From positions 624,763 through 688,762 of the forward strand of contig OZ253471.1 of NCBI GenBank assembly GCA_965261715.1: a stretch of 64,000 nt of DNA, in the 5' to 3' direction. Below the pieces are notes generated by a model. That model was not told the DNA's origin, searched no databases, and worked only from the letters and a program-made list of their open reading frames with translations. The translations under genes and the position numbers were made by a program. Origin of the DNA: Dehalococcoidia bacterium (GTDB lineage: Bacteria; Chloroflexota; Dehalococcoidia; Bin125). The number at the start of each line of letters is the position of its first letter. The first letter of the stretch is position 1. This document shows, in pieces, positions 4,933 through 64,000 of this stretch.

Positions 4933-5640
4933 ATGCAACGCGATCAGAAGCCGGCCGAGCCGGAGCTTCCCGAGTGGCTGCAGAAGATCGAGCGCTTCCC
5001 CCAGGTTGATCCGGTTGTCCTGCTGGGCTTTGCGCCGGTCGCGCTCTATCTGTTCTTCGACCGCGTCTGGGATGTCCGTCCGGCAATCGCAGCGGCGGTG
5101 ATCGCCGCGGTCGTCGTCTTCTTTGTTCAGCGCCGGCTGCGACCGCAACACAAGGTCGTGTTTCGTCTGGCCGTGTTGGGCCTCGCGGTCATCATCGCCT
5201 TTGGCATCGCCGGTCTGATCTGGGACGACGGCAAGATCTTCTGGGCTTCCGATCCGATCGAAGACTTCATCGTCGGGACGATCTTTGCGATCAGCCTGTT
5301 CATGCGTCGGCCGATCATCAGCCCGGTGATCCGTGAACTGATGCCGGAAGTCGCGGACAAGTTGCCCGGCGACCACAAGATCTGGATGAAGGTGACCGCC
5401 GTCTGGACCGTCAAGATCCTGCTGGCCGGTGTGCTACGGCTCTGGCTGCTGGACAGCGTCGACGCCAATACCTACGCCATCCTCAGATGGCCGCTCGGTT
5501 GGGCGATGAACGCAGCGCTGTTTGCCTGGAGCGCCTACGTGGTGGGCGGCGCCATTCGCGAATACGCCGTTTCGCAGCTTCGCGCCGAATCAGGCGAGGC
5601 CGGCGAAGTGGTCGCGGAGTCCGAGATCAGTGAACGCTGA
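4933..5640 (+). CDS. Integral membrane protein (several TM helices), function unknown
   Basis: From ATG at 4933 (MQRDQKPAEPELPEWL...). Hydrophobic segments VVLLGFAPVALYLFF, IAAAVIAAVVVFFV, LAVLGLAVIIAFGIAGLIW. The upstream part of the track ORF overlaps the repeat element. Confidence 0.55.
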   Translation: MQRDQKPAEPELPEWLQKIERFPQVDPVVLLGFAPVALYLFFDRVWDVRPAIAAAVIAAVVVFFVQRRLRPQHKVVFRLAVLGLAVIIAFGIAGLIWDDGKIFWASDPIEDFIVGTIFAISLFMRRPIISPVIRELMPEVADKLPGDHKIWMKVTAVWTVKILLAGVLRLWLLDSVDANTYAILRWPLGWAMNAALFAWSAYVVGGAIREYAVSQLRAESGEAGEVVAESEISER

Positions 5641-6675
5641 GCGGAACCACTCGATCACCTCGGGGTGATAGGGGATGCCGCGCTCGGAACGATCGATCTC
5701 CGCCTCATGCTCCTCGAGTCCCGCGTAAATCACGCGCTCCTCACCCGGCGCCGTCGGCGTCTCCCGTAGCGATTTCAGGTACTGGTCCATGTTGGACTTG
5801 AACTCGTCGACATCGGTGAAGGCGGCGATGTTGAAGACCGTGAAGTGGTGTCCGACGCCCTTGAATCGATGCAGCGCCGATCCGGCGCCGGCCATGATCC
5901 CGCTGAGGATGTCGATCGACATGGCCAGCGAGTAGCCCTTGTGCGAACCGATCTCCCGCGTGCCGCCGAGCGGCAGCATCAGGAACTCGTCGGGCGTTGG
6001 GCCCGATTCCATGATCGGTGTGCCGTCGGCGCTGGCGACCCAGCCGGGCAGCAGGTCCTCTCCGAGGCGCTGCGCCAGGCGAATCTTGTTGCCGGCAACC
6101 GATGACATCGAGGCGTCGAAGATGAACGGAGCCTCTTCATTGGCAGGCGCCGCGACGCTGAGCGGGTTGAGTCCAACCATCGCTTGCGCGCCATGCGTCG
6201 GCGCGACGAGCAGACCGCCGACCGTCATCGAGAGGCCGATCATGTCGTGCTCGATCGCCATCTGCGCGTGATAGGCAGCCGCGCCGAAATGCCGGCCATT
6301 GTTGCAGACGACAGTGGCGACGCCGCAGTTGCGCGCCTTCTCGATTGCGATCTCCATGGCTTGCGGTCCGAGCGTGAGTCCGAGGCCGCGGTCGCAGTCG
6401 ATCGTCGCCGCGGCCGGGGCGTCGCGCTCCAGCTTCCAGTCGGGCGTGGGATTGATATCGCCCGATTTGAAGCCGGCGACGTAGGCGCGCAGCATGTTGG
6501 AGACGCCGTGCGAGTCGATCCCGCGCAGGTCGGCGTAGAGCAGCGTGTCGGTGCTGCGCGTGGCGTCGTCCTCGGGCATGCCCATCCGGGTGAAGATCTC
6601 GTGTACGGCGCCGTGCATTGCGTCACCGGGGATGCGAACGGCGATCTCTTCGGGGACGGCGAACTGCTTCAGCAT
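5590..6675 (-). CDS. Ldh-family oxidoreductase (malate/L-lactate/sulfolactate dehydrogenase type 2 family)
   Basis: 361 aa with the Ldh_2-type layout: ...GIDSHGVSNMLRAYV...GRHFGAAAYHAQMA...HKGYSLAMSIDILSG.... Its 3' end overlaps the convergent membrane-protein gene by 51 nt. Confidence 0.75.
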   Translation of the reverse strand: MLKQFAVPEEIAVRIPGDAMHGAVHEIFTRMGMPEDDATRSTDTLLYADLRGIDSHGVSNMLRAYVAGFKSGDINPTPDWKLERDAPAAATIDCDRGLGLTLGPQAMEIAIEKARNCGVATVVCNNGRHFGAAAYHAQMAIEHDMIGLSMTVGGLLVAPTHGAQAMVGLNPLSVAAPANEEAPFIFDASMSSVAGNKIRLAQRLGEDLLPGWVASADGTPIMESGPTPDEFLMLPLGGTREIGSHKGYSLAMSIDILSGIMAGAGSALHRFKGVGHHFTVFNIAAFTDVDEFKSNMDQYLKSLRETPTAPGEERVIYAGLEEHEAEIDRSERGIPYHPEVIEWFRSAFTDLGLRDHFAGLA

Positions 6676-6928
6676 GAGGGGCTCCAGGGCTGCTTCCCGC
6701 GGGTCAAGCAGGGCGCTCGCGGGTCGAATCTGATGGTCTGTCGAGCAGGGTACCGCCAGTCTGATTCGTGGTTGTCAGCTGAACTGTGGCAAGTATGCGC
6801 TTTATCGTCCGTTGACATTTCCTTGATGTCGCGGACCGCTGATCTGCATAACGTCGGGAATGGAGACAACGGAAGGGCGGCGCAGGGCAGCTCGCCGGAC
6901 TCCAAGCAGATCAGAGGAGTGTGACGTC

Positions 6929-7183
6929 ATGAATGCGATGCCTGACTCGAATCCCTACGCGCTGGTTCAGCCGCAGCTCAAGGAGACGTACATGCGCGAA
7001 ATCGCCCGGCGTCGATGGATGAGCCAGCAGGAGCAGGAGCGCAAGCAGGCGCGCCGCCAGCGCGTCGCCAAGGTCGCCGACCGCGTCAAGCAGGTTCAGC
7101 GACTGCGACCCGGCCATGCAGTGGCCCACTCGCTGTCGCCGGTCTACAGCATGTTCAGCGAATCCTTCTTCCGCGGTCTCTAA
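6929..7183 (+). CDS. Small basic hypothetical protein
   Basis: ATG at 6929 is preceded by aggagtg. It is followed by a clear rho-independent terminator (gggcgaccctcgtggtcgccctttcgg at 7213-7240). Confidence 0.4.
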   Translation: MNAMPDSNPYALVQPQLKETYMREIARRRWMSQQEQERKQARRQRVAKVADRVKQVQRLRPGHAVAHSLSPVYSMFSESFFRGL

Positions 7184-7263
7184 GGCGGCTCACGGACCAG
7201 GAAGCAACTGTAAGGGCGACCCTCGTGGTCGCCCTTTCGGTTGCCTGCCGGACGCAACCTCCG

Positions 7264-7725
7264 CTACTCCCCTCGTGCACAGGCAAACAAGCCGTGCGGC
7301 TCATGGCCGCCGACCGCAAACAGATTGCCGTTGGGAGACCAATCAGCACGGTGCCTCGGTACAGATTCATATGAGTCGTGGTTTCGGCAGCTGGCCGCTG
7401 CAATGAGCTCACGGTCCACTTCGCCACCACGTCCGACTATCAACACCCGGAAATTGTACAGACCGTTGACCAGGAGTTCAGGGAGTACGCTCTCTCCCCT
7501 CAGTGTGATTTGAATTGAGTCACCCGTTGGATTCCAAGCTGCAGCTCGCTGCCAATGGGTCCACGGCTTGCTGCCAAAGTCAAGTTCCACTCCTCTCGCA
7601 GTCGACAGATCGAGCAGCATCGCACCGTGAATGAAGTCGATCGCGTAGACGTCCCAAACGGCCAATACGAGAGCTTGCTCTTCCTTGGACCAGTAGACAA
7701 CCAGCCTGGGTCTTTCACGGTCCAT
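7264..7725 (-). CDS. Hypothetical protein; possibly the C-terminal part of the upstream lipoprotein gene (same frame, separated by one TAG)
   Basis: Same reading frame as 7777..9483(-). A single TAG at complement(7777-7779) is the only stop between them. Confidence 0.35.
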   Translation of the reverse strand: MDRERPRLVVYWSKEEQALVLAVWDVYAIDFIHGAMLLDLSTARGVELDFGSKPWTHWQRAAAWNPTGDSIQITLRGESVLPELLVNGLYNFRVLIVGRGGEVDRELIAAASCRNHDSYESVPRHRADWSPNGNLFAVGGHEPHGLFACARGE

Positions 7726-7776
7726 GCTCGGATCGAACGGCGGCCATATCTGCGTTCCGGTTGATCGCTGACTGGA

Positions 7777-9483
7777 CTACACAACAACAGCGCGAAGGTC
7801 GTGTTGTCGGGCACTGTATAGCCAAGCTCGCCCTGTCGATTCCTCAACCACCATGGCGTGTCGCCGCAACGGTGACCACGCGATATAGATTGGCTCTTCA
7901 AGCGTGTCGCCTCCCTCTACTGACCGTATACGAGCAACGTCTTCATCCTTGCTCCCTCCAGATTCAAATGGCTCAAATCGAAGGAATTCGCCAGTGAATG
8001 TGAACACCAATGTGTGCAAATCTAGATCGCCCTTGATATCCACGCACAAGGCAGCAGTCGCAATCGTGTCGTCGCCGTGAAACTCCCACGTGCTGAAGTA
8101 GCCGTCAGCAAATGGTGGATCCACACGGCACGCTCGTCCTCGAAACTCACGACTCCAGAATGGGTCGAGTCGGATCATGTGACCTTCATCGTGGAACAGG
8201 AGCGTCGTAGGGGAACGTGGTTCCTGGCCTCTGTCGAACAAGGCGATTCGGAGCATGACTGCTTTGCTGTTTTTCGACCACTTTAGGTTCGCGTTCCACC
8301 CGCTGGATGTCATACCGAGGGATGACGCCACCTCCAATGTTCTGAAATCCTCAACAAAGGCGATGCGCTGCGTTCCGTCAAGCGGAATGATCAGCACACT
8401 ATTGTCTCGACCGCAATCAAGATCACGAGCGCACAGATCAGCGATCGCCAGATACCGACCATCCGGCGACAACTTCGCAAAGCCGGGCGGACGCGCGATG
8501 AATTCCAACTCATCCGTCTCCGGACGCCACTGCCAGATGTGGGTGTCGTTGTGAGCCAGCAGCCAACCCCAGGGCAGCCACATCCACTCGTTCGCTCTCG
8601 GTAGAATCTTCCCCTGCCCGACGCGAAAGTCATCTCCGGGGAAGATGACCGTCTCATCGCCAATCAGAATGGGCAGGTCTTGCAGCGTGACGTCGCCAGC
8701 CGGCAGGTTCACCTCGTCGATCGGCGCGCCGGTGATTGTTGACGTGTCGTCCTCAATTTTCAGCAGCCGGACTTCCGCGCCGTCTGCCGACTGCCCCATC
8801 ACCCCGTACTCCACGCCTCGCCACTCGGCGATCAGCGGAGGCGCTGGCTTTTCTAGCACCTGCCGTTGCTCGACCCTCCCGAGATCCAGCATCGTCGTGC
8901 GGATCCAGCCCTCTAAATCTCCGCCGAATCTGATCCGGTACCAACCGTCGGCGTGTTGTAGGACCGCCACTGACGCCCCGGACTCCAGCCGATCCATAAC
9001 CGGCCAGGCCAACCCCGGCCGCATCCGTACATCGGCGTCCTGCACAACAGCAGCGGGCACATCGGTCCGATCCAGGGGATGTTGCCTGGGTTCCGGCCTA
9101 GCCTCCTCAGCCTGATCGTCAGTCCGTGCGGGCGCTGCCTCGGGTGATGGCTGTTCTGAGACTTGCGCCGTCTCCTCCGCAGTCGACGCCTCCGCTGGCA
9201 GCGCATCCTCAGGCTCATCCGCGGCCGCTGGCTCTGCTTCTGACTCTGCTGCGCGGTCGACATCCCCAGGCCGCCTCGATGCCTGGGCGGCTGATTGCCC
9301 TGGAGCTTCCTGCTGCGCAACCGGTTTCGACGCCCGCTGCGTCTGCGTCTGAGGCTCGGACACCGAAACCGGCTCGTCGCCTCCACACGCGGCCACCACC
9401 ACGGCCAGAAACAACGCACAGTACAGACATAGGACTCGCATACAGATAGAAACGTACTGCGCTCCGGCAATGTTCCCAACCAC
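7777..9483 (-). CDS. Lipoprotein with acidic Pro/Ala/Glu-rich linker, bacterial SH3-like domain and beta-rich C-terminal region
   Basis: Signal peptide plus lipobox: LCLYCALFLAVVVAACGG. SH3_3-like segment: MRPGLAWPVMDRLESGASVAVLQHADGWYRIRFGGDLEGWIRT. Confidence 0.6.
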   Translation of the reverse strand: MVGNIAGAQYVSICMRVLCLYCALFLAVVVAACGGDEPVSVSEPQTQTQRASKPVAQQEAPGQSAAQASRRPGDVDRAAESEAEPAAADEPEDALPAEASTAEETAQVSEQPSPEAAPARTDDQAEEARPEPRQHPLDRTDVPAAVVQDADVRMRPGLAWPVMDRLESGASVAVLQHADGWYRIRFGGDLEGWIRTTMLDLGRVEQRQVLEKPAPPLIAEWRGVEYGVMGQSADGAEVRLLKIEDDTSTITGAPIDEVNLPAGDVTLQDLPILIGDETVIFPGDDFRVGQGKILPRANEWMWLPWGWLLAHNDTHIWQWRPETDELEFIARPPGFAKLSPDGRYLAIADLCARDLDCGRDNSVLIIPLDGTQRIAFVEDFRTLEVASSLGMTSSGWNANLKWSKNSKAVMLRIALFDRGQEPRSPTTLLFHDEGHMIRLDPFWSREFRGRACRVDPPFADGYFSTWEFHGDDTIATAALCVDIKGDLDLHTLVFTFTGEFLRFEPFESGGSKDEDVARIRSVEGGDTLEEPIYIAWSPLRRHAMVVEESTGRAWLYSARQHDLRAVVV

Positions 9484-10732: not shown

Positions 10733-12001
10733 ATGCCTGGTGAAGCATCAAGGTCCGCCGCAATCGTCGGCGCCGCCGAAGCGAACGACATTGGCTACCC
10801 GCAGACGGCGAAGTCGTCGCTGACCCTGCACATCGAAGCGATCAAGAACGTGACCGATATGACGGGGATTCCGATCTCCGCTATCGACGGCATCTTCTCT
10901 GCCGGTTGGTCACCGCAAATTGCCGAGTATCTCGGTCTGCACCCCAAGTACATCGATACGACCGCCGTCGGCGGCTGTTCATTCGAGATGCACGTCCACC
11001 ACGCGCTGGCTGCGATTCACGCTGGAGTGATCGACGTGGCGCTTGTCACGCACGGCGAGATGGGATTCAGCCAGCGGTTTACCGGCGGCAAGGGCACGGG
11101 CCGAGCCGGCGGCGCCGGCGACCCCTGGGACCCGGGGACACAGCACACCTCGGCCTACGGCCTGGGCGGCGCGCCGACCTCGTACTCGCACGCGCTCAAC
11201 CGGCACATGGCCCGATACGGCACGACGCAGGAAGACTTCGCCGAAATCGCGGTTGTCACCCGCGAATGGGCGACGCTTAACCCGCGCGCGGTGATGTACC
11301 GCAAGGCGGGCGAGGGCGGCCTGGCGCCGCTGGAGAAGGGCGAATGGGGCGGCGGCAAGCGCGGCCACACCTTCGGTGGACCGATCACCGTCGACACGGT
11401 GATGAACTCCCGCCCGATCTCCTGGCCGATCAAGCTGCTCGATGTCTGCCTGGTCACCGACCATGGCGGCGCGGTGCTGATCACCGGCCCCGAGCTGGCC
11501 AAGACGTCCAAGACCCCTCCGGTCTGGATCGCCGGCGCGGGCGAGTCGATCTCGCACTGGAACATGCTCGAGATGGGCGACTTCACGCAGACGTCGGCCT
11601 CACGCTCGGCCGCCACGGCCTACAAGATGGCTGGCATGGGTCCCGAAGACATGGAAATGGCCATGATCTACGACTCATTCACGGTCACGGCTGGAATCAC
11701 CGCCGAGATGCTCGGTCTCGCCCCTGCGGGCGAGGGCTTCAAGCTCTGGAAGGACCGCGACGCGGCGCCGGGCGGACGCCTGCCGATCAACACCAACGGC
11801 GGCGGCTTGAGCTTCAACCACTCCGGCATGTACGGCATGCAGCTCCTGGTCGAGGCCTACCGCCAGCTCTCCGGCACCGCCGAGGATGGCGGATTCTCCG
11901 GCGACCCGGGCAAGCAGACCAGCGCGCGCAGTTGCATCGTCAACGGCACGGGCGGTTCGCTGTCCACGACCGGCACTCTGGTGCTCGTCTCCGACGACTA
12001 A
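10733..12001 (+). CDS. Thiolase-like protein (SCP-x / lipid-transfer-protein type thiolase)
   Basis: 422 aa with thiolase-fold hallmarks (…GGCSFEM…, C-terminal …NTNGGGLSFNHSGMYG…). aggag RBS 8 nt upstream of ATG. Confidence 0.75.
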   Translation: MPGEASRSAAIVGAAEANDIGYPQTAKSSLTLHIEAIKNVTDMTGIPISAIDGIFSAGWSPQIAEYLGLHPKYIDTTAVGGCSFEMHVHHALAAIHAGVIDVALVTHGEMGFSQRFTGGKGTGRAGGAGDPWDPGTQHTSAYGLGGAPTSYSHALNRHMARYGTTQEDFAEIAVVTREWATLNPRAVMYRKAGEGGLAPLEKGEWGGGKRGHTFGGPITVDTVMNSRPISWPIKLLDVCLVTDHGGAVLITGPELAKTSKTPPVWIAGAGESISHWNMLEMGDFTQTSASRSAATAYKMAGMGPEDMEMAMIYDSFTVTAGITAEMLGLAPAGEGFKLWKDRDAAPGGRLPINTNGGGLSFNHSGMYGMQLLVEAYRQLSGTAEDGGFSGDPGKQTSARSCIVNGTGGSLSTTGTLVLVSDD

Positions 12002-12574: not shown

Positions 12575-12705
12575 CCGATGTGTTAACCTGATGGAAGATT
12601 GAAGCCGGGGTGGTCCGACCGTTAACACACGGGGTTCGGGCCTGAGAACACACCCGCTGAACCTGATCCGGGTAATGCCGGCGCAGGGAGCAAGCGCAGC
12701 AGCCA
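12575..12705 (+). ncRNA. TPP (thiamine pyrophosphate) riboswitch
   Basis: Contains the conserved THI-element cores ...ggggtggtcc...cctgagaa...acccgctgaacctgatccgggtaatgccggcgcagggag..., immediately upstream of thiD. Confidence 0.85.
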
Positions 12706-12753
12706 TCAGGCCCACCCGCAAGACAGTCGACCGCCCACACGCGGGAGCATTCC

Positions 12754-44567: not shown

Positions 44568-44644
44568 TGGCGCGCCCGGCAGGACTCGAACCTGCGACCT
44601 CTGCCTCCGCAGGGCAGCGCTCTAATCCGCTGAGCTACGGGCGC
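44568..44644 (-). tRNA. tRNA-Arg (anticodon GCG as read)
   Basis: Reverse complement gcgcccgtagctcagcggattagagcgctgccctgcggaggcagaggtcgcaggttcgagtcctgccgggcgcgcca; anticodon loop cuGCGga. Confidence 0.7.
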
Positions 44645-44685
44645 AATGCAACGGCGGGTTGGAAGTGGCTGGAGACTTCGAGTGC

Positions 44686-44772
44686 TGGTGCCGACGAAGG
44701 GATTCGAACCCCCACGGGCTTAAGCCCACTACGCCCTGAACGTAGCGCGTCTACCAATTTCGCCACGTCGGC
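44686..44772 (-). tRNA. tRNA-Leu (CAG)
   Basis: Reverse complement gccgacgtggcgaaattggtagacgcgctacgttcagggcgtagtgggcttaagcccgtgggggttcgaatcccttcgtcggcacca. Long variable arm, anticodon CAG. Confidence 0.8.
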
Positions 44773-44862
44773 AGCGATCCGGAGTCTGCTTCGACTCCCT
44801 CCAGTCTCCTTGTTGTTGCCAACCCTTTCAAGCGTATCCCGAAATCTGATAACGGCGAATGC

Positions 44863-44939
44863 TGGTGGGCGATGCAGGACTTGAACCTGCGGCCTCTCGG
44901 ATGTGAACCGAACGCTCTAGCCAGCTGAGCTAATCGCCC
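44863..44939 (-). tRNA. tRNA-Val (CAC)
   Basis: Reverse complement gggcgattagctcagctggctagagcgttcggttcacatccgagaggccgcaggttcaagtcctgcatcgcccacca. Confidence 0.8.
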
Positions 44940-44991
44940 GTATCTGAAGGACGCACCCCAAGGTGCTGGTAGCAGACGCACCCCAAGGTGC

Positions 44992-45067
44992 TGGTAGCAG
45001 CGGCAGGACTCGAACCTGCGACACGGGGCTTATGAGTCCCCTGCTCTGCCTACTGAGCTACGCTGCC
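44992..45067 (-). tRNA. tRNA-Met (CAT), elongator type
   Basis: Reverse complement ggcagcgtagctcagtaggcagagcaggggactcataagccccgtgtcgcaggttcgagtcctgccgctgctacca. The 3' terminal 23-25 nt are tandemly duplicated immediately downstream (44950-45000). Confidence 0.75.
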
Positions 45068-47057: not shown

Positions 47058-47134
47058 GGGCGATTAGCTCAGGTGGCTAGAGCGTCCGGTTTACACCCGG
47101 GAGGTCGGAGGTTCGAGTCCTCCATCGCCCACCA
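47058..47134 (+). tRNA. tRNA-Val (TAC)
   Basis: gggcgattagctcaggtggctagagcgtccggtttacacccgggaggtcggaggttcgagtcctccatcgcccacca. Confidence 0.85.
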
Positions 47135-54730: not shown

Positions 54731-55774
54731 GTGCGCCCGGAGCATGTTGTGACCTTGCCGACCGACCGCCGCATCCGCGAAATCGGCCGGAGGGTGGCTC
54801 GCCAACTGGTCGAGAGCGTCGGATCGGGCGCTGGTCGCCAGCTCGTCGTTGCCGTATCGGGTGGCGCCGACTCATCTGCCCTGCTCCTCCTGCTGACCGA
54901 CACGCAATCTCGACATGGATGGCGAGTTCGCGCTGCGCACGTTGACCATCTGATTCAGACCGGATCGGTCCGCGCCGAGTTCTGCACCTCCGCCGGCGAG
55001 CTGGCCAACACAGCCGGCGTGCCGTTCGACATCATCGAGGCCGACGCCTCGTCGGAAGCCGCCTCGTCCTCAGATAGCCTGGAAGCTGCCGCGCGGCGCG
55101 TCCGGTATCGAGCGTTGAACGACCTGGCGCTCGCGTTCGGGGCGCCAGCGGTCGCCACTGCTCACACGCAGAACGATCAGGCCGAGACAGTCTTGTTGCA
55201 CATCCTGCGTGGATCGGGACTCGATGGGCTGAGTGCGATGCCTCCGGTGCGTCCGTTGAGCGACGAAGTGGCGTTGGTGCGACCGATGCTCGATGTGACC
55301 CGGGCCGAGACCGAGTTCGTCTGTCTGGCGTACGGCTGGACACCCGCGCACGATCCATCCAACGACGACCTGATTCACACGCGAAACCGTGTGCGACGGT
55401 CGCTCTTGCCGTTGATGCAGGCAATCAATCCGAATGTCTCCGAGCGATTGGCGGACCTGGCCCGGTCCGTTGGGTCCGATCGAGAGCTGCTTGATCTGGT
55501 TGGGCGACAGGCGCTGGAGCAGATTCTTGACGAGGACGGCGGGCTGCCTCGACGCGTGTTTCTCTCGCTGCCCGGTCAGTTGCAGGTCAGAGTGATCCGG
55601 TCGTTCACCCAGGCCCAGGGGGTGACGCTGTCGTCCGAGCGGACGGCGTCGGCGCTGCAGGTGATTCACAACGGGCATGGCCTGGTCGAGCTGCCAGAGG
55701 GCGTCTGTCTGCGCGTGGCGGGCGGTGTGGTGACGATCGAGGGAAGTAGTCCACCGGACATTACGGGCGGTTGA
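54731..55774 (+). CDS. tilS: tRNA(Ile)-lysidine synthetase
   Basis: PP-loop VAVSGGADSSALLLL; 347 aa. Confidence 0.85.
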   Translation: MRPEHVVTLPTDRRIREIGRRVARQLVESVGSGAGRQLVVAVSGGADSSALLLLLTDTQSRHGWRVRAAHVDHLIQTGSVRAEFCTSAGELANTAGVPFDIIEADASSEAASSSDSLEAAARRVRYRALNDLALAFGAPAVATAHTQNDQAETVLLHILRGSGLDGLSAMPPVRPLSDEVALVRPMLDVTRAETEFVCLAYGWTPAHDPSNDDLIHTRNRVRRSLLPLMQAINPNVSERLADLARSVGSDRELLDLVGRQALEQILDEDGGLPRRVFLSLPGQLQVRVIRSFTQAQGVTLSSERTASALQVIHNGHGLVELPEGVCLRVAGGVVTIEGSSPPDITGG

Positions 55775-55808
55775 CTTCTTGGATCGTGGCGGGCTAAGAT
55801 TGTCTTCT
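55773..55808 (+). promoter_or_regulatory. Candidate sigma70-type promoter upstream of 16S rRNA (TTGACT-18-TAAGAT)
   Basis: ttgacttcttggatcgtggcgggctaagat, about 230 nt upstream of the mature 16S 5' end. Confidence 0.4.
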
Positions 55809-56031
55809 GCGCAAATGAAGAACGCACCGCTCGGCAAGAAGCCTGATGAGCGTTTCGCAGATGCCAGCCTTAACAATTGGAGAGCGGAAGTCCAGTGTGC
55901 TTGGGGAGCCCCCCCAAGTCCGGACACAAAAATCGTTGCGATTCCTTTGGGAGTGGCAGCGGTCGCGATGTCCGAACAATCTCTACTTTTGCAGCCGGCA
56001 TGACCGGCTGAACCAATGGAGAGTTTGATCC

Positions 56032-57512
<1,481 letters not shown>

Positions 57513-57762
57513 TAGGGAGAATGCCGATCGACCCCGCCTCGGTGGGAATCGGTCGAGCTCCCAGGTCGATCCGCCAGCCTCTATCACCAGTGCTTGCATT
57601 GCTGAGCGAGGCGCCCTGAGGCCGACGCCCCTAACACGGGCGGACGCCAACGAGTCAACGGCGTGATTATGGTTTCACAAGCGCACTGACTTTCGCTCTC
57701 CAACGGTTAAGGCCGACCCCCGGGCCGCGATTCCGACCGAATCGCGGACCCGAGGCCATCCC

Positions 57763-57839
57763 GGGCCATTAGCTCAGCAGGTTAGAGCGCAGTCCTGATA
57801 AGACTGAGGTCCCTGGTTCGAGTCCAGGATGGCCCACCA
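57763..57839 (+). tRNA. tRNA-Ile (GAT)
   Basis: gggccattagctcagcaggttagagcgcagtcctgataagactgaggtccctggttcgagtccaggatggcccacca. Confidence 0.9.
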
Positions 57840-57954
57840 ACCAGAAGACTCCCGTCCAATGAACAGGCGGGAGTTTTTCGCGTCCAGCGGCCTGCAGGGT
57901 CACATTTCGAGTCCGGCGATGCAAAGCCTCGCCAGGCGCTAAAGTAACGATCCC

Positions 57955-58030
57955 GGGGCCGTAGCTCAGCCGGGAGAGCGCCGCCCTTGCACGGCGGAGG
58001 TCAGGGGTTCGATTCCCCTCGGCTCCACCA
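57955..58030 (+). tRNA. tRNA-Ala (TGC), intact copy
   Basis: ggggccgtagctcagccgggagagcgccgcccttgcacggcggaggtcaggggttcgattcccctcggctccacca. G3:U70 and encoded CCA. Confidence 0.9.
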
Positions 58031-58069
58031 CTCCCAGATCCTTGGATTCCACGAGATGGAAGCGGCACG

Positions 58070-58474
58070 ATGAGTGACGACGCGCCCGCTGATCAGCCAG
58101 ACCAGCGCCCCGGCCGGATCGGCTGGCAGGACCTGACCGTCGACAATGCGGAGGTCGTGCGCGACTTCTACAGCGAGGTCGTTGGTTGGAAGACGATGCC
58201 GCTCGACATGGGCGGCTACGACGACTACGTGCTGCTCAGCCCCGACGGCCAGGCCGGCGACGGCCAGGCCGGAATCGCGGGAGGCTGCCACGCCCGAGGA
58301 GTCAACGCCAATCTCCCGCCACAATGGCTGATCTACGTCAACGTCGAAGACCTCGACGCCAGCTTGAAGTCCCTGGGAGGCAGCATCGTGGATGGGCCCA
58401 GGGAGATGGGTGAGGGTCGGTTTTGTGTCATCAGAGATCCGGCAGGCGCGGTCTGTGGATTGATTGAGCAGTAG
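58070..58474 (+). CDS. VOC-family (glyoxalase/bleomycin-resistance fold) protein
   Basis: …IGWQDLTVDNAEVVRDFYSEVVGWK…GRFCVIRDPAGAVCGLIEQ is a typical single-module VOC protein. Starts 40 nt after tRNA-Ala. Confidence 0.6.
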   Translation: MSDDAPADQPDQRPGRIGWQDLTVDNAEVVRDFYSEVVGWKTMPLDMGGYDDYVLLSPDGQAGDGQAGIAGGCHARGVNANLPPQWLIYVNVEDLDASLKSLGGSIVDGPREMGEGRFCVIRDPAGAVCGLIEQ

Positions 58475-58562
58475 CTCAGTCGGCTTAGGTTCTCCATGTT
58501 CACAGGCGCGGGACGATGGCGGCCTGCGGTCGGAGCGGGCTATATTGGTCTCGCGATACCGG

Positions 58563-58994
58563 TTCATGGAGATTGAAGTGGGTGAGATCATCGTCGAGAT
58601 TGAGCTGGAAAATGCCGAGGACCGATCGGACGCGCGCCGCGGACGGATCGACGAGGCGTCGGTGCGGCGGGAAAAGGTGCAGGCAGTCGCGGACACCGGC
58701 GCGGTGATGCTGGCGCTGCCCGAGGATGTAGTGGAGGGACTCGGACTGCCAACGGTCCGGACGCTGACGAGCACATTCGCCGACGGTCGACGCGGTCAAT
58801 TGCCGATCGCCGGGCCGCTAACGATCCAGATCGGAGACCGACAAATGCTGACGGAGTGCATCGTCGTGCCCGAGGGCGCCGAGGCGCTGGTCGGGCAGGT
58901 CGTGATGGAGACCCTGGACTTGATTCCCGACCCCATGAATCAGACGCTAGGCCCAAGGCCGAAGTCGCCAGATCGTTCGTTGCTGCGGGTGTAG
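58563..58994 (+). CDS. Retropepsin-like (clan AA) aspartic protease
   Basis: Catalytic motif ADTGAVMLALPEDVVEGLGL (D-T-G-A). The true start is likely ATG 58563 (MEIEVGEIIVE...) rather than the overlapping 58464. Confidence 0.55.
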   Translation, partial: FMEIEVGEIIVEIELENAEDRSDARRGRIDEASVRREKVQAVADTGAVMLALPEDVVEGLGLPTVRTLTSTFADGRRGQLPIAGPLTIQIGDRQMLTECIVVPEGAEALVGQVVMETLDLIPDPMNQTLGPRPKSPDRSLLRV

Positions 58995-59098
58995 GGATTA
59001 TCGGCTGCATCGTTTCGCGCAGGCTTTTGCAATAGGGTCCAGTGAGGTGGAGATTCGGACGCGCGTCGGATCGGATCGGGCGCTACGCTGGGGATGCA

Positions 59099-59174
59099 CG
59101 GGCCGTAGCTCAGCTGGGAGAGCGCCGCTCTTGCACGGCGGAGGTCAGGGGTTCGATTCCCCTCGACTCCACTA
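59099..59174 (+). pseudogene. Second, degenerate tRNA-Ala(TGC) copy (tRNA-like remnant / att-like duplicate)
   Basis: cgggccgtagctcagctgggagagcgccgctcttgcacggcggaggtcaggggttcgattcccctcgactccacta. Has C1 instead of G1, a C5-A68 mismatch, and ends CTA instead of CCA. Otherwise about 93% identical to the copy at 57955. Confidence 0.6.
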
Positions 59175-59207
59175 CTTGGACATAAGTATTGTGTGCGGGA
59201 TAGACGA

Positions 59208-60971
59208 ATGCAAATCAAGGAACTCCACGTTCAACGTTTCCGGGGGTTCTCGGAAATCAAGATCCGACCTCGCGGGAACGTCGTTTTGATGGGAGAACCC
59301 GGCGCTGGACGCACTGACCTTTTCGAAGCGTTGAGCAGACTTCTGAACTTCTATCAAGGTCGCAATCGCGAGATCAGTGAGTTGGACTTCCACTTGGGAG
59401 ACTGCAGCGAACCAATCAGAATATCGGTCACGCTAGGTGATCTTGACATCGACCTCGAACAGGATTTCTTCGACCACTTGGAACTATGGGACGAAACTGA
59501 TCGTTGCTTGATCGATGAAGCCCAGAATGGTCAATTGGACGACCGAGCCGATTGTTCATGGGCATTCAGAATAACGTACGAGGCTCGCTGGCTGCAGGAC
59601 GAAGCAATGCCAGAGGACCGGGTGTTCTTTCCGAAAGACTCCGATCCTGAGTCCGGAATATTTGCCCGTGTCCGGCGCAATGACCTTGAGGCTCTTGGCT
59701 TTGGTCTGCTCCGCCCGGGGAGCACAGGGATGCTCGAATTGGGCCCACGTAGTGACTTTCGCAAACTGGTTGATGTCGCAAATGGTGACGATTTCGGGGC
59801 AGCTATGAGAAAATATGTCAACGAGGTCGGCATAGCGGCGGAGAACTTCAGTCACTCTGACCAGGTGCAAGCGGCAGTCGCAAGAATTGTTGCGCTAACG
59901 GGTGAGCTTCAAGGAATCCCGAACATTGATCCGAGCACTTTCATCCAATTTGCCCCTGATGACGGTTCTGAAAGCGGCTTACTGCGCTCTCTCGGAGCTG
60001 CAGTGGACTTTGACGATGGAGTCGGACAGCTACCAGCCTGGCGGCACGGATCATCTACCAGATCGCTTCTGAAGGTCGCTGAAGTGGTCGCTGCGGCCAA
60101 AAGCCCCAAACCAGTCTTGGTCATTGATGACCTCGGAGACGGAATGGATGCACCGTCTGCAGCGCATCTAGCTGCTGCGCTGTGCGAAACAGCCAGCCAA
60201 GTGTGGGTAACCACGCGGATACCCGCGGTTGCAGAAGTATTCCAACCTCAGGAAGTGCTGCGCCTCGGAAAAGGGAAGGCCGGGAAGAGAACGCTGCACA
60301 GCGGAACACACGCAATTAAGCCCGAGGAAGCTGCGATGTACAAGCACTGGCATCGAAACCTGTTGCCAGCTTTGACCTATCGAAGCGTCATAATAGTTGA
60401 AGGGCCTCACGACTTCGTCGCCTTGCACACACTTGCTCTCCGGCTGCATGAAGAACGTGGTACCGCCCTTCCTGCGACACACAAAATAGCAATTGTCAGC
60501 GCAGGCGCAAGTGGTGACGGCGGATACGCAACAGTGATGAAGTTGGCTCGGCAAGCCAAATCAATGGGTCTATTTGCGGTTGGCGCAGTTGACGGCGACT
60601 CCGATCCGGCTTCCCTGAAATACATCGAGACAAACTTAGAAATGGCTGACTCTGTAGTGCGGCTTCCTCGTCGGTTCGCAATCGAAAAGGCTCTCGTTCA
60701 CGACATTCCGGATAGCGTCCTCATGAGCGTTGTTCAGGATCTTGAGAACGCAGTAAACATGGAGAACACCAACGTGCAGCCTTCGGATGGCGGAGATATA
60801 CACAAGAAGGCAATGGCCCTTCTGAAGAAGGAATCACTGCACGGGCCCTTCATCGACCTACTCCCAGCAGAACACCTGCCCCCTCTCGCCTGCCGATACT
60901 TAGGGACCTTAGTTGGCGCCGCTAGAGGCGACTCAGCAGGATTGATTCAACTTTGCAAATCAACGACCTAA
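59208..60971 (+). CDS. gajA: OLD-family ATP-dependent endonuclease (ABC-type ATPase + C-terminal TOPRIM), Gabija GajA-like
   Basis: N-terminal MQIKELHVQRFRGFSEIKIRPRGNVVLMGEPGAGRTDLFEAL (P-loop, with Arg in the usual Lys position). Walker B-like VLVIDDLGDG. C-terminal TOPRIM: IIVEGPHDF (Glu) and AVDGDSD (DxD). GC about 50% vs the window's roughly 65% background. ATG 59193 is an alternative start. Confidence 0.75.
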   Translation: MQIKELHVQRFRGFSEIKIRPRGNVVLMGEPGAGRTDLFEALSRLLNFYQGRNREISELDFHLGDCSEPIRISVTLGDLDIDLEQDFFDHLELWDETDRCLIDEAQNGQLDDRADCSWAFRITYEARWLQDEAMPEDRVFFPKDSDPESGIFARVRRNDLEALGFGLLRPGSTGMLELGPRSDFRKLVDVANGDDFGAAMRKYVNEVGIAAENFSHSDQVQAAVARIVALTGELQGIPNIDPSTFIQFAPDDGSESGLLRSLGAAVDFDDGVGQLPAWRHGSSTRSLLKVAEVVAAAKSPKPVLVIDDLGDGMDAPSAAHLAAALCETASQVWVTTRIPAVAEVFQPQEVLRLGKGKAGKRTLHSGTHAIKPEEAAMYKHWHRNLLPALTYRSVIIVEGPHDFVALHTLALRLHEERGTALPATHKIAIVSAGASGDGGYATVMKLARQAKSMGLFAVGAVDGDSDPASLKYIETNLEMADSVVRLPRRFAIEKALVHDIPDSVLMSVVQDLENAVNMENTNVQPSDGGDIHKKAMALLKKESLHGPFIDLLPAEHLPPLACRYLGTLVGAARGDSAGLIQLCKSTT

Positions 60972-62593
60972 AGCCATCGCAACAAGAAGTCATCAACGCA
61001 CTGCTGGGCGATGCCTCGAGGGTGCTCGTTGCTGGCGGTCCTGGAACTGGAAAAACCACGACGGCGCTGTGGGCAGCTCGCTCCTTTTTAGAGGCCGACC
61101 ACGACAACATCCCCAATCGCGTTCTGTTCTTAACATTCTCACGATCGGCGGTCGATCAGATCCAGAAGCGCTGTCCGGCAGCACTCGCGGGGTATGAAGA
61201 TAGGGTCGAAGTATCGACATTCCACGCCATCGCGTACCGCCTTATCCGTACATTTGGCCGATATGGTGGCCTTGGCAGGGAACTGCCAGCGATCCAATCA
61301 AGGGCATCGGAAAAGCTGTTTCAGCGAGACCGAAGTGCATACAGTTACGACGATTTGCTCCCGACTGCAACAGCACTCTTGGAAGGCAGCGAATTGGTCC
61401 GGCGTATTGTGTCAAATCGCTGGGGGCTGTTAATATGTGATGAGGTGCAAGACACGTCCTCGGAGCAGTGGCAATTCTTGCAGCTGCTATCGTCGAATGA
61501 GCTTCTATTGTTGGGTGACCTCGGGCAGATGATATACGGTTGGCTTCCAGGTGTATCGGTAGATACGTTCCACGATATGAAAGAACAGGTTGATGTTACT
61601 TTACATCTCGCGGCATCTTCTTTTCGAGATCCCTCCGGTGCGATTCCAGGATTGGCCGATGCAGTCAGAACGCGGCAATTCGATCACGGGGCAGTGCACA
61701 ATGCTCTGGAAGAGCAGCGTTTGATCGTCGTGCCAGATACGGGTAACGATATGGTGCCGGGAAATCTGATCAAGTTGGTAGAGAGTGCAAGGGCACCGAG
61801 ACATGAAGATGTCGGTATCTTTGCCGCGGACAACGAGACGGTCGCCCAGATAGGGGTTCACCTGCACGATGCTGACATCGATCATGTTCTGGTAGGAATT
61901 CCTGAGGCTCACGGTGAGGCTTTGGCGGCAATGGTTGCACAAATCTCCTTTGCGGTGGGGTTGATTGGTCAAGAAACTCTTCGGCACGCAATGGCGTTGT
62001 TTGTCACGGCCTGCGCAAGAGGATCTAGTGTTCCAGTGTTGGCACATAAGCTTGTCGGGAGAATGCCCTTGACGCAGACAGAGGAGTTAGCACTGTGGAG
62101 GCAGGAAAGATCGCTCGCGGCTGCCGGGATGGGTACGGTTGGAGGAGTGGCTCAGGCCGCGAGCGAATGTTGGAGCGGATTGCCTATCGGGTCCGCGGTG
62201 CGACCTTGGCAGCGCGCGGTCCGGCATTTCATGCGCTTGATGGGGCGGGATCGGGCTCTGTCCGCGTCCGGCGACATTGTATCGGTCTTGAAGCAGGTCG
62301 TCGAGGTTGGAAGAGCCGAGTCTCTAGTGGATTTGAATTATTTTGAGCGCGGTCGCGTGATGCTGATGACCTTGCATCAGACCAAGGGTCGGGAAGTCGA
62401 TACGGTGATTCTCGTGTTTCGCTCGGAAGATTACTTCGGCCGAGAAGGAGAACCATTCGAAGATTCTTCGCGGCTTCTCAACGTGGCGATTTCGCGAGCT
62501 CGCAAACGCGTCATAGTCGTGGTCCCATCTGATCCTCATCCGCTCATAGCACCGTTCCAGACTCTAGCTCAGGGAGGTAGCTTCAAGTTGTGA
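60953..62593 (+). CDS. gajB: UvrD/PcrA-like SF1 helicase, Gabija GajB-like
   Basis: Motif I VLVAGGPGTGKTTTAL. Motif II LLICDEVQD. Motif III LLLLGDLGQMIY. Motif VI VMLMTLHQTKGREVDTVILVF. Overlaps gajA by 19 nt (operon). Confidence 0.75.
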   Translation: MQINDLKPSQQEVINALLGDASRVLVAGGPGTGKTTTALWAARSFLEADHDNIPNRVLFLTFSRSAVDQIQKRCPAALAGYEDRVEVSTFHAIAYRLIRTFGRYGGLGRELPAIQSRASEKLFQRDRSAYSYDDLLPTATALLEGSELVRRIVSNRWGLLICDEVQDTSSEQWQFLQLLSSNELLLLGDLGQMIYGWLPGVSVDTFHDMKEQVDVTLHLAASSFRDPSGAIPGLADAVRTRQFDHGAVHNALEEQRLIVVPDTGNDMVPGNLIKLVESARAPRHEDVGIFAADNETVAQIGVHLHDADIDHVLVGIPEAHGEALAAMVAQISFAVGLIGQETLRHAMALFVTACARGSSVPVLAHKLVGRMPLTQTEELALWRQERSLAAAGMGTVGGVAQAASECWSGLPIGSAVRPWQRAVRHFMRLMGRDRALSASGDIVSVLKQVVEVGRAESLVDLNYFERGRVMLMTLHQTKGREVDTVILVFRSEDYFGREGEPFEDSSRLLNVAISRARKRVIVVVPSDPHPLIAPFQTLAQGGSFKL

Positions 62594-62730
62594 AGGGAGT
62601 GACGAGTGCAGGCCTCCTCTTTGGAGACCGTTTGCGGGTAGAGGCCGCATGTTGAGAAGTGTTCCCATCTGCTTTGTTGTTGCCTGGTTTATCGATTGCG
62701 GCTGTCAGCGCCGTGCTAAGATTTCTGGGA

Positions 62731-62847
62731 GCTGGTGATTGGAGCGCGGTGGCCCCACCCGTTCCCATCCCGAACACGGAAGTGAAACGCCGCAGCGCTG
62801 ACGATACTGGGGGGGCAACCCCCTGCGGAAAATAGGCCATCGCCAGC
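62731..62847 (+). rRNA. rrf: 5S ribosomal RNA
   Basis: gctggtgattggagcgcggtggccccacccgttcccatcccgaacacggaagtgaaacgccgcagcgctgacgatactggggggcaaccccctgcggaaaataggccatcgccagc. Helix I closes between the two ends. Confidence 0.9.
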
Positions 62848-62865
62848 TCGCTCTTTTCCTGCTCC

Positions 62866-62900
62866 CGCCCGACCTCGTGTCGGGCGGTTTTCGTTTCACC
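62866..62900 (+). terminator. Rho-independent terminator after 5S rRNA
   Basis: cccgcccgacctcgtgtcgggcgg followed by ttttcgtttc. Confidence 0.7.
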
Positions 62901-62977
62901 CAGCGACGCCGATTCGTCCACTGCCTCTGGAGGATGTCTCGCAAGTCCCCCTGCCGCTGCCGGGTTTCCAGGCTGAA

Positions 62978-63053
62978 CCCCGAGCGGGTCCCGGCTCGGA
63001 GGCCGGGACTGTGTGACGCGAACGGGTCCCGGCTCGGAGGCCGGGATTGGGAG
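62978..63053. repeat. Tandem pair of a 23-bp hairpin unit (gggtcccggctcggaggccggga) in the rpsA leader region
   Basis: The unit occurs twice, 15 bp apart. Each contains the inverted repeat tcccggc/gccggga. Confidence 0.6.
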
Positions 63054-63280
63054 TGATGAGACATTGCCCCTGTGGTACGATTTGGCAAACCCCAGAAAGG
63101 AGACGGGCAGGATTTCAGCGTCCGCGACGCTCACCATCCTGGGCGTGAGGCGCACCACTGAATCCTGCCCTACTCACCAAACCGTTGACGACACCTAGCA
63201 CTGACATCGCGTCCACCACCGCCACGGCCGAAGTTCCCCAGGAACCGCTAGCGCCCGTGGCGGCCAAAGAACCCACCACC

Positions 63281-64000
63281 ATGGACGAGCTCCTGGCCGA
63301 ACCCGGTCGGGAGCCGCTGAACCCCAGACGTGGCGACATCGTTGAAGGCATCGTCGTGCACTGGACCGGTACGGCCCTGATCGTTGATGTCGGCGCCAAG
63401 TCCGAGGGCATCGTCCACTTCGAGGAGATGCGCTCGCTGACCGACCAGGAGCGTGAGGCGCTCAAGACCGGCGATCCCGTCCACGTTTTTGTCACGGACT
63501 CCGAGTCGGAAGGCGGCTCGCTTGAGTTGTCCATTGACCGCGCCCGCGGCGAGCAGGGTTGGCATGAGCTGCAGCGCCGCTTCGACGAGAACGATGTCTT
63601 CGACGGCCGCGTGACCGGCTCGAACAAGGGTGGTCTGCTGGTCAACGTCGAGGGCGTCAACGCCTTTGTCCCGCTCTCGCAGATTGTCGAAATCACCGGT
63701 GACCGCGATCAGGCGATCGCACAGTTGGCTGAGTACGAAGGTCGCACGCTGCGGTTCAAGGTCATTGAGATCAACCGCCGCCGCAACCGCGTCATCCTTT
63801 CTGAGCGCGCCGCCGTCCAGGAATGGCGCGCCGAGCAGAAGGACCGCCTGCTGGAAGAGCTCCAGGAAGGCGAAATCCGCGCTGGCCGGGTCACGAGCAT
63901 CCGTTCATTCGGTGTGTTCGTCGACCTCGGAGGCGCTGATGGCCTGGCGCATCTCTCCGAGCTGAGCTGGGAACGCGATGTCGACCCCGAGGCGATGTTT
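63281..64000 (+). CDS. rpsA: 30S ribosomal protein S1, 5' portion (runs off window end)
   Basis: …RGDIVEGIVVHWTGTALIVDVGAKSEGIVHFEEM…VFDGRVTGSNKGGLLVNVEGVNAFVPLSQI…GRVTSIRSFGVFVDLGGADGLAHLSEL… are successive S1 domains. No stop before the window end, hence absent from the ORF track. GTG 63257 is an alternative start. Confidence 0.8.
   Translation, partial: MDELLAEPGREPLNPRRGDIVEGIVVHWTGTALIVDVGAKSEGIVHFEEMRSLTDQEREALKTGDPVHVFVTDSESEGGSLELSIDRARGEQGWHELQRRFDENDVFDGRVTGSNKGGLLVNVEGVNAFVPLSQIVEITGDRDQAIAQLAEYEGRTLRFKVIEINRRRNRVILSERAAVQEWRAEQKDRLLEELQEGEIRAGRVTSIRSFGVFVDLGGADGLAHLSELSWERDVDPEAMF

Follow-up and report, generated by a model that had tools for sequence, protein, structure and literature searches.

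An rRNA operon without its 23S gene in Dehalococcoidia, and the hypervariable slot between its tRNA-Ala and 5S genes

In a 64,000-nucleotide stretch of a Dehalococcoidia genome (assembly GCA_965261715.1, contig OZ253471.1, positions 624,763 to 688,762 of the forward strand; hereafter the window), the genes for 16S ribosomal RNA (rRNA), tRNA-Ile, tRNA-Ala and 5S rRNA follow one another between tilS and rpsA, and the 23S gene that would be expected between tRNA-Ala and 5S is missing. The explanation that we regard as very probable is that the rRNA genes of this organism are unlinked: 23S left the operon together with tRNA-Met, while 16S, two tRNAs and 5S stayed behind, and the gap was later colonised by defence genes. 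The locus reads as follows, with the RNA genes of the 64-kb window called with Rfam at gathering score:

54731..55774, plus strand: tilS, tRNA(Ile)-lysidine synthase (Pfam PP-loop and TilS domains), the conserved left neighbour of 16S
56013..57511, plus strand: 16S rRNA gene (Rfam RF00177, 1536.6 bits, full length)
57763..57839, plus strand: tRNA-Ile(GAU) (ARAGORN and Rfam)
57955..58030, plus strand: tRNA-Ala(UGC), intact copy (ARAGORN and Rfam, 69.8 bits; cloverleaf at -34.5 kcal/mol)
58035..62710, no strand: hypervariable slot, the site of 23S-tRNA-Met in canonical relatives (flanks 98.9-100% identical to those of a sibling locus, L094; interior differs)
62731..62848, plus strand: 5S rRNA gene (Rfam RF00001, 88.1 bits, full length, model positions 1-120)
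63257..64000, plus strand, cut by the window end: rpsA, ribosomal protein S1 (Pfam S1 domains), the conserved right neighbour

That 23S is absent between tRNA-Ala and 5S had been observed in an earlier note made from the sequence alone, and this observation is correct. No match to large-subunit rRNA (LSU) models is present in the whole 64 kb at Rfam gathering score, and a permissive Rfam scan (E<=10) of 55500-64000 found no LSU fragment. Furthermore, when the 23S of a near relative was compared with the whole window by blastn (word size 7) and nhmmer, the result was either nothing or chance matches of 13-26 nt with E>=2. The rRNA covariance search of 58031-62730, which that note had itself named as a possible refutation, returned no 23S-homologous segment. 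The same note described this interval as fully occupied by protein-coding genes; it is indeed mostly coding, on the plus strand, though not fully so, as a degenerate second tRNA-Ala(UGC) at 59099-59172 had been missed.

The age of this loss can be read from relatives. We retrieved 80 loci from species-representative genomes by means of the downstream S1 protein (rpsA-anchored), almost all of them titled as metagenome-assembled genomes (MAGs) of Dehalococcoidia, Chloroflexota or Chloroflexi, many at chromosome level and many from sponge projects. The loci, with 10-kb flanks, were compared using 16S, tRNA-Ile, tRNA-Ala, 5S and 23S probes; ARAGORN was run on the loci, and Rfam on selected ones. 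Distant relatives (L062-L081, with 16S genes 82-84% identical) carry the canonical order 16S-tRNA-Ile-tRNA-Ala-23S-tRNA-Met(CAU)-5S-rpsA, with tilS upstream. Closer relatives have no 23S here, and at 41 loci tRNA-Ala, 5S and rpsA follow in order; in 16 of these 41 window-type loci, tilS-16S-tRNA-Ile is also visible inside the 10-kb flank. The neighbours are the same in both groups: tblastn places tilS upstream of 16S in window-type and canonical relatives alike, and rpsA lies 3' of 5S in nearly all S1-anchored relatives with a detectable 5S. In 23 of the loci, tRNA-Ala and 5S are separated by 23-106 bp, and these short-gap relatives have neither 23S nor cargo between the two genes; in the other 18, the distance amounts to 184-5649 bp. 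A neighbour-joining tree of S1 sets the canonical clade apart from the 23S-less clade, in which both basal branches are compact, with 16S-Ile-Ala-(32-44 bp)-5S. Together, the tree and the gaps point to the loss of 23S-tRNA-Met from the operon as one old event at the base of the clade, and to the occupied gaps as later additions. The ancestral operon was tilS-16S-tRNA-Ile-tRNA-Ala-23S-tRNA-Met-5S-rpsA, from which the 23S-tRNA-Met block was lost at the base of a clade rich in sponge-derived genomes, with 16S, the two tRNAs and 5S retained between tilS and rpsA.

This bears directly on a suggestion in the earlier note, that the 23S of a normal operon was deleted or replaced by an inserted cassette, with intact operons elsewhere sustaining the cell. 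The Gabija-containing cassette described below does lie exactly where 23S would be, is foreign in composition and is strain-specific. Such a replacement is nevertheless exceedingly improbable: the 23 relatives with a gap of 23-106 bp lack both 23S and cargo, the loss at the clade base is far older than the cassette, the distant 23S loci carry neither 16S nor 5S and hence offer no spare operons, and no 23S remnant is left in the window. Compact gaps without cargo stand at the base of the clade and the 23S loss is old; 23S was therefore not displaced by the cassette, which settled in a site that had long stood empty.

Since the source is a MAG, and since assembly classically goes wrong at rRNA operons, one could also suspect an artefact that removed 23S from the locus, either by a collapse, which the earlier note had raised, or by a wrong join. 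However, a 21-kb metagenome contig (ENA ERZ25068833 ctg49760), which is independent, is 100% identical across the whole locus and has the same arrangement. The order is repeated, with near-identical flanks, in a circular sibling chromosome that comes from a different sample, it recurs in dozens of chromosome-level relatives and in many circular long-read chromosomes, and 23S is found at a consistent alternative locus. Collapse during assembly is excluded, and an assembly artefact of any such kind is to be regarded as extremely unlikely. MAGs of this clade that show 16S-tRNA-tRNA-5S without 23S are correct, not mis-assembled, and amplicon or long-read methods that span 16S, the internal transcribed spacer and 23S will fail for the whole group.

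So where is 23S? With TrkH as a handle, genomic context was fetched in complete chromosomes with known rpsA loci, and in four out of four the 16S...5S locus and the 23S locus lie on opposite strands, 1.0-1.6 Mb apart:

OZ241375.1: 16S...5S locus at 1.02 Mb, 23S locus at 2.73 Mb
OY820591.1: 16S...5S locus at 0.99 Mb, 23S locus at 2.07 Mb
OZ242948.1: 16S...5S locus at 0.06 Mb, 23S locus at 1.45 Mb
Circular 3,525,851-bp sibling: 16S...5S locus at 2.94 Mb, 23S locus at 1.35 Mb

The 23S block has the order DUF169-...-23S-tRNA-Met-trkA-trkH-(arsC)-aminotransferase-tRNA-Glu, and both 16S and 5S are absent near it in the complete chromosomes. Seven further 23S loci (L084 and L087-L092), more distant ones included, have the same neighbours. 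The 23S-tRNA-Met block now stands alone beside trkA-trkH and tRNA-Glu. The 16S and 5S genes of the circular sibling are 100% identical to those of the window. As for the window's own chromosome, its GajA-like, VOC and TilS proteins are found on a 3,612,147-bp contig. A contig of identical length carries exact matches to TrkH (P0020) and TrkA (P0130), a 116-aa open reading frame (ORF; P0154), and members, at least 90% identical, of the clusters of an aminotransferase (P0158) and a serine recombinase (P0172). In L089 and L093, 23S-tRNA-Met is bracketed by TrkA-TrkH and the 116-aa ORF, and in L089 the aminotransferase and the recombinase come just past TrkH. The case that the chromosome of the window keeps its 23S beside trkA-trkH is in our view strong, albeit indirect.

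In the classical split operons of Thermus, Rickettsia/Wolbachia, Helicobacter and Buchnera, 16S stands alone and 23S and 5S are kept together. By this precedent, the 5S of the window could be a leftover, non-functional copy, with the working 5S located beside 23S. This is very unlikely, as no 5S is present within about 5-9 kb of 23S in ten TrkH/ORF-anchored 23S loci. Moreover, the 5S of the window is full length at 88 bits, has kept its conserved upstream motif and terminator, and is 100% identical between genomes whose adjoining slot genes are only 86% identical. The earlier note had also considered unlinked rRNA genes with a stray 5S. Of this, the unlinking holds, given the 41 loci of relatives, the single origin on the S1 tree and the 23S found elsewhere in four complete chromosomes, whereas the 5S is anything but stray. 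Like the classical cases, these genomes appear to have a single rRNA gene set spread over two distant loci; unlike them, they do not have 5S beside 23S, and the break point therefore differs.

Signals that would allow the retained genes to be transcribed apart from each other were read around the RNA genes:

57844..57878, plus strand: hairpin followed by UUUUU, a likely intrinsic terminator of the 16S-tRNA-Ile transcript (RNAfold -22.8 kcal/mol for 57840-57890, then a T run)
57940-57945, plus strand: -10-like TAAAGT, 9 nt upstream of the intact tRNA-Ala (read from the sequence)
62714..62722, plus strand: TGCTAAGAT, an extended -10-like element and putative 5S promoter, 8 nt upstream of the mature 5S 5' end
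62865..62897, plus strand: intrinsic terminator after 5S, a 9-bp GC-rich stem followed by TTTTCGTTTC (terminator scan and RNAfold)

A similar -10-like box is located 9 nt upstream of both tRNA-Ala copies. The motif TGnTAnnnT precedes 5S in 42 of the 53 loci of the clade, ending 6-10 nt (mostly 8-9) upstream of the mature 5' end, against a background frequency of 0.26% per 30-nt window; five basal compact loci lack the exact motif. This conserved extended -10 motif suggests that 5S has its own promoter, a reading that is based on conservation across genomes rather than on a generic scan. Since the sequences of the canonical outgroup show a TTGCnn-N17/18-ATACT-like pair at the equivalent place before 5S, an independent 5S promoter may pre-date the split of the operon. 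The generic sigma-70 and terminator scan picked up the 5S terminator and one candidate upstream of 16S; the tRNA-Ile hairpin was not picked up, as it presumably falls outside the stem and loop limits of that scan.

The former operon appears to run as separate transcription units. The 16S-tRNA-Ile transcript would end at the hairpin terminator, 5S would have a terminator of its own, and tRNA-Ala and 5S would each be served by a -10-like box that precedes the mature 5' end by 8-9 nt. If each gene is indeed its own transcription unit, nothing needs co-transcription across the gap, so that insertions between the RNA genes would be harmless and interruption of the gap would cost nothing. Such an arrangement would explain how the operon was pulled apart and the gap colonised. 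With 23S split off from 16S and 5S, a stoichiometric output of 16S, 23S and 5S must therefore be reached without co-transcription.

The slot itself carries the following features:

58070..58474, plus strand: VOC/glyoxalase-fold protein, 134 aa (Pfam PF00903, 22.4 bits)
58545..58994, plus strand: small clan AA (retropepsin-like) aspartic-protease-like protein (Pfam gag-asp_proteas, NCBIfam TIGR03698)
59099..59172, plus strand: second tRNA-Ala(UGC), a decaying duplicate (Rfam 56.2 bits, against 69.8 for the intact copy)
59177..62710, plus strand: strain-specific low-GC cassette with a Gabija-like pair (from GC composition and the lack of homologues in the relatives' loci)
59208..60971, plus strand: GajA-like OLD-family ATPase-TOPRIM nuclease, 587 aa (best PADLOC GajA match 1.9e-33, residues 6-180)
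60953..62593, plus strand: GajB-like UvrD/PcrA-type superfamily 1 (SF1) helicase, 546 aa (PADLOC GajB 6.6e-52; Pfam UvrD-helicase 2.4e-28)

Homology to the nearest relatives ends 4 nt past tRNA-Ala and is regained about 21 nt short of 5S, immediately before the -10 box, and across relatives the slot measures 23-5649 bp. The flanks of the sibling locus L094 are almost those of the window, with tilS at 99.7%, 16S at 100%, 5S at 100% and rpsA at 99.6% identity (5S is 100% identical in L003 too). Within the slot, identity drops to 86% for VOC and to 94.5% for the protease gene, the decayed tRNA copy takes a different place in the order, and a KAP-NTPase fragment is found where the window has Gabija. 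The slot is thereby shown to be hypervariable, with content that differs even between genomes whose flanks are about 99-100% identical. An identity of 92.8% to L094 over the right flank was considered as a sign of a wider recombination tract and rejected, because the segment-wise value is 99.6% and the low figure comes from an indel in the 5S-rpsA spacer. This indel is accounted for by a small GC-rich hairpin, GGGTCCCGGCTCGGAGGCCGGGA, which occurs twice in the spacer (62986-63008 and 63024-63046) and again in L043 (about 11374-11490), and which may be a repeat of the repetitive extragenic palindrome (REP) or miniature inverted-repeat transposable element (MITE) type.

Some of the genes in the slot recur. 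VOC homologues lie 3' of the tRNA in 16 relatives, which makes the VOC gene a recurrent resident; that of the window contains a perfect 15-nt tandem duplication, CGACGGCCAGGCCGG in two copies at 58243-58272, giving an in-frame repeat of five residues. The aspartic-protease-like gene is recurrent as well and often tandemly duplicated, with paralogues in L003, L043, L032, L029 and L044. Two or three such paralogues stand in tandem in L032 (6434-7751), L003 (5943-6356 and 7079-7492) and L043 (6169-6582 and 7308-7720), and this gene is consistently associated with copies of tRNA-Ala. The second tRNA-Ala of the window differs from the first by 5 substitutions, among them those at acceptor positions 1 and 67 and a CCA>CTA change; its cloverleaf reaches -25.2 kcal/mol, against -34.5 for the intact copy, and its minimum free energy structure is not a cloverleaf. 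It is part of a 98-nt direct repeat (59079-59176) that includes the 20 nt upstream of the tRNA with the -10-like box. A decayed second tRNA-Ala is also present in L003, L043 and L094, placed differently relative to the VOC and protease genes. A match of the transfer-messenger RNA (tmRNA) model on tRNA-Ala (45.3 bits, under the gathering score) was discarded, as it reflects the tRNA-Ala-like end of that model.

The remaining cargo varies widely. In the 23 loci that bear cargo, most cargo clusters have a single member, and anti-phage genes are frequent:

L023: AbiU (7.7e-174)
L048: PDC-S20/KAP NTPase (8.8e-110)
L032: cyclic-oligonucleotide-based anti-phage signalling system (CBASS) cyclase with a 2TM effector
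L044: PD-Lambda-5 with a D12 methylase
L015: OLD-family ATPase-TOPRIM
L025: SIR2
L009, L010 and L022: N6_N4 methylase with a partner gene

By plain count, and with the Gabija of the window included, at least 10 slots out of the about 24 that are occupied hold known anti-phage types. Studies of hotspots in E. coli and Pseudomonas have located defence islands between conserved core genes or next to tRNA genes. The slot between tRNA-Ala and 5S is a defence hotspot in the same sense: its flanks are conserved, its cargo differs from strain to strain, is rich in anti-phage systems of many types and, as is often the case in such islands, can be of lower GC. What sets it apart from known hotspots is that it lies between RNA genes of what was once an rRNA operon, at the position vacated by 23S. 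Once co-transcription had been given up, the spacer would have become free space for mobile defence systems. In practice, tRNA-Ala and 5S can serve as a simple pair of conserved anchors with which to collect the defence systems of uncultured Chloroflexota associated with sponges.

In the window, this cargo is a cassette with a GC content of 0.50-0.61 (mostly 0.51-0.57), compared with 0.63-0.67 in the flanks, and none of the 80 relatives' loci nor the sibling L094 has a homologue of it. We interpret it as a recently acquired, two-gene Gabija-like module with a putative anti-phage function. Like Gabija, it consists of two co-oriented, overlapping genes of the right sizes, with PADLOC matches to GajA and GajB; gajB lies directly downstream of gajA on the same strand and overlaps it by 19 nt. 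The N-terminal ATPase of GajA is recognised by PADLOC GajA profiles and a RecF/SMC_N-like N-terminus, and the glutamate (VEGPHD) and DxD (VDGDSD) motifs of the TOPRIM domain are visible in the translation. NCBIfam yields only sub-threshold similarities of the pair to RecF or helicases, and the matches of GajB in the PDB are to generic UvrD, PcrA and Rep. The same gene pair is present in another genome (L095), with an IS481-type transposase gene and a gene for a PemK-like toxin next to it, and the pair thus appears to be mobile and to recur elsewhere as a unit.

We must however take into account several observations that weigh against unlinked rRNA genes with a gap filled by defence systems, or against parts of this explanation. 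The 23S position in the window's own chromosome is deduced indirectly, from the co-occurrence of exact proteins on a contig of identical length and from conserved synteny. Moreover, two short-read MAG contigs, L008 (1-9712) and L034 (1635-7312), join 23S-tRNA-Met-trkA-trkH-tRNA-Glu to the 5S-rpsA side while being nested inside the 23S-less clade on the S1 tree, and the architecture of the clade is thus not uniform. In L008 the junction lies exactly at the tRNA 3' CCACCA. Since the two loci lie on opposite strands in the four complete chromosomes, one inversion between the tRNA-Ala and tRNA-Glu ends would yield exactly this arrangement. A chimera could do so too, as both contigs are short-read assemblies, although a de Bruijn assembler would not be misled by a shared core of 6-7 nt. 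With regard to transcription, the generic sigma-70 scan of the region gave site counts no higher than in shuffled sequences. The slots hold non-defence cargo as well, namely a periplasmic binding protein in four loci and an acyl-CoA dehydrogenase in one. Finally, the GajA-like protein departs from Gabija in several ways. Its nearest homologues among 5.8 billion proteins are at most 52% identical, a sequence search of the PDB found no match to any solved structure, Gabija included, and the OLD/TOPRIM Pfam matches are below cut-offs (TOPRIM, PF20469, E=0.0036, 18.2 bits against a cut-off of 23.2 bits). Furthermore, its Walker A motif (GEPGAGRT, residues 29-36) reads GAGRT instead of GxGKS/T, with arginine replacing lysine. 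This substitution may alter ATP binding or hydrolysis, and the nuclease activity of GajA is thought to be nucleotide-regulated.

How is the content of the slot exchanged? Its turnover fits replacement by recombination with the conserved RNA genes as arms; tRNA-Ala and 5S would be ideal homology arms for swaps of cargo because they are among the most conserved sequences of the genome. A wider proposal is that the hole left by 23S was turned, clade-wide, into a dedicated recombination-driven defence slot, with tRNA-Ala and 5S as homology arms for exchange between strains and species, with a promoter for each RNA gene 8-9 nt from its mature 5' end, and with breakpoints at tRNA ends that also mediate megabase inversions by which 5S is re-paired with the 16S half or the 23S half of the split operon, as in L008 and L034; to this we give about an even chance. 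For the turnover alone, cargo could instead be delivered by tRNA-targeting site-specific recombinases at the 3' end of tRNA-Ala, a possibility that we regard as less likely than not. The breakpoints in L008, L010 and L060 are exactly at the tRNA 3' CCACCA, tRNA-Ala has been duplicated in full, a large serine recombinase and a type I HsdM methylase lie directly upstream of 5S in L016 (7858-9504), an IS110 transposase is present in the slot of L013, and a large serine recombinase abuts tRNA-Glu in L089. The window slot (58031-62730), on the other hand, encodes neither an integrase or other recombinase nor a transposase, and it lacks both a target-site duplication and inverted repeats at its ends; a search for target-site duplications and inverted repeats around the Gabija cassette found only the tRNA-Ala duplicate and short repeats at chance level. 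The duplicated tRNA brackets the VOC-protease block and not the Gabija cassette, and the genes upstream of the L010 and L060 breakpoints are ordinary metabolic genes, with no mobile elements. Flanks that are 99-100% identical around an interior of 86-94% fit allelic replacement by homologous recombination.

No junction of the old operon has stayed closed throughout the clade. Between tRNA-Ile and tRNA-Ala, insertions measure about 6.2-6.3 kb in L029, L036, L039 and L042 and about 3.7-3.8 kb in L020 and L038, with a cobalamin riboswitch (5000-5179) opening the insertion in L020. L018 has 16S-tRNA-Ile, then 0.5 kb, then 5S, and lacks tRNA-Ala. In L010 (7300-7460) and L060 (8700-8880), both chromosome-level, VOC...5S-rpsA is joined at the CCACCA boundary to metabolic genes (ABC transporter, tryptophan halogenase, cobalamin); the visible 7.4-8.8 kb upstream hold neither tRNA nor rRNA, and 5S seems to stand alone. 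These two were considered as carriers of a mobile island integrated upstream of VOC, which was rejected on account of the transport, halogenase and cobalamin genes found there.

Unlinked 16S and 23S genes were already known in this class. Brewer et al. (2020; bioRxiv 10.1101/705046; ISME J 14:597) reported that Dehalococcoidia typically have 16S and 23S unlinked; in the usual unlinked case of that study 16S is apart from 23S plus 5S, and 5S was not analysed. The genomes described here agree with those Dehalococcoidia in the separation of 16S and 23S, a trait that is phylogenetically conserved in the clade, be its members free-living or host-associated. They differ from the usual case in that 5S has been retained beside 16S and the spacer tRNAs, and 23S has gone elsewhere together with tRNA-Met. 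According to PMC8172020, it is very unusual for bacteria to have 23S and 5S apart, and in the literature searched we found no published account of 16S-5S linkage without 23S, or of a defence hotspot in a former rRNA operon. Both the retention of 5S with 16S and the defence slot thus appear to be new.

Fully dispersed rRNA genes are found in Leptospira and Thermoplasma. The present case resembles these, as well as some bacteria of the candidate phyla radiation (CPR), in that 23S and 5S are apart and each gene would require its own promoter. It differs from them in that 16S and 5S have kept the spacer tRNAs and their ancestral neighbours tilS and rpsA, so that the operon has lost its middle part alone. 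As such, this clade provides a natural example of an rRNA operon dismantled in an unusual way, with the middle gene gone and both ends kept.

Some further features of these genomes deserve mention. Near the 23S of OZ242948.1, a stretch of L086 (760-6576) encodes a cytochrome P450, a fused squalene epoxidase and squalene-hopene/oxidosqualene cyclase-like protein of 1124 aa, and a sterol methyltransferase-like gene, a set that resembles a gene cluster for sterol-type biosynthesis, here in a member of the Chloroflexota associated with sponges. In L089, the large serine recombinase gene (6324-8039) and the tRNA-Glu that it abuts (7901-7976) are located past the trkH-aminotransferase part of the 23S locus. 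Elsewhere in the window there is a thiamine pyrophosphate (TPP) riboswitch at 12596-12706, as well as a minus-strand tRNA cluster Arg-Leu-Val-Met at 44568-45067 with Val(UAC) nearby (47058-47134). In L019 and L028, the Arg-Leu-Val-Met cluster is found reversed, about 6 kb upstream of tRNA-Ala-5S, which points to further local rearrangement.

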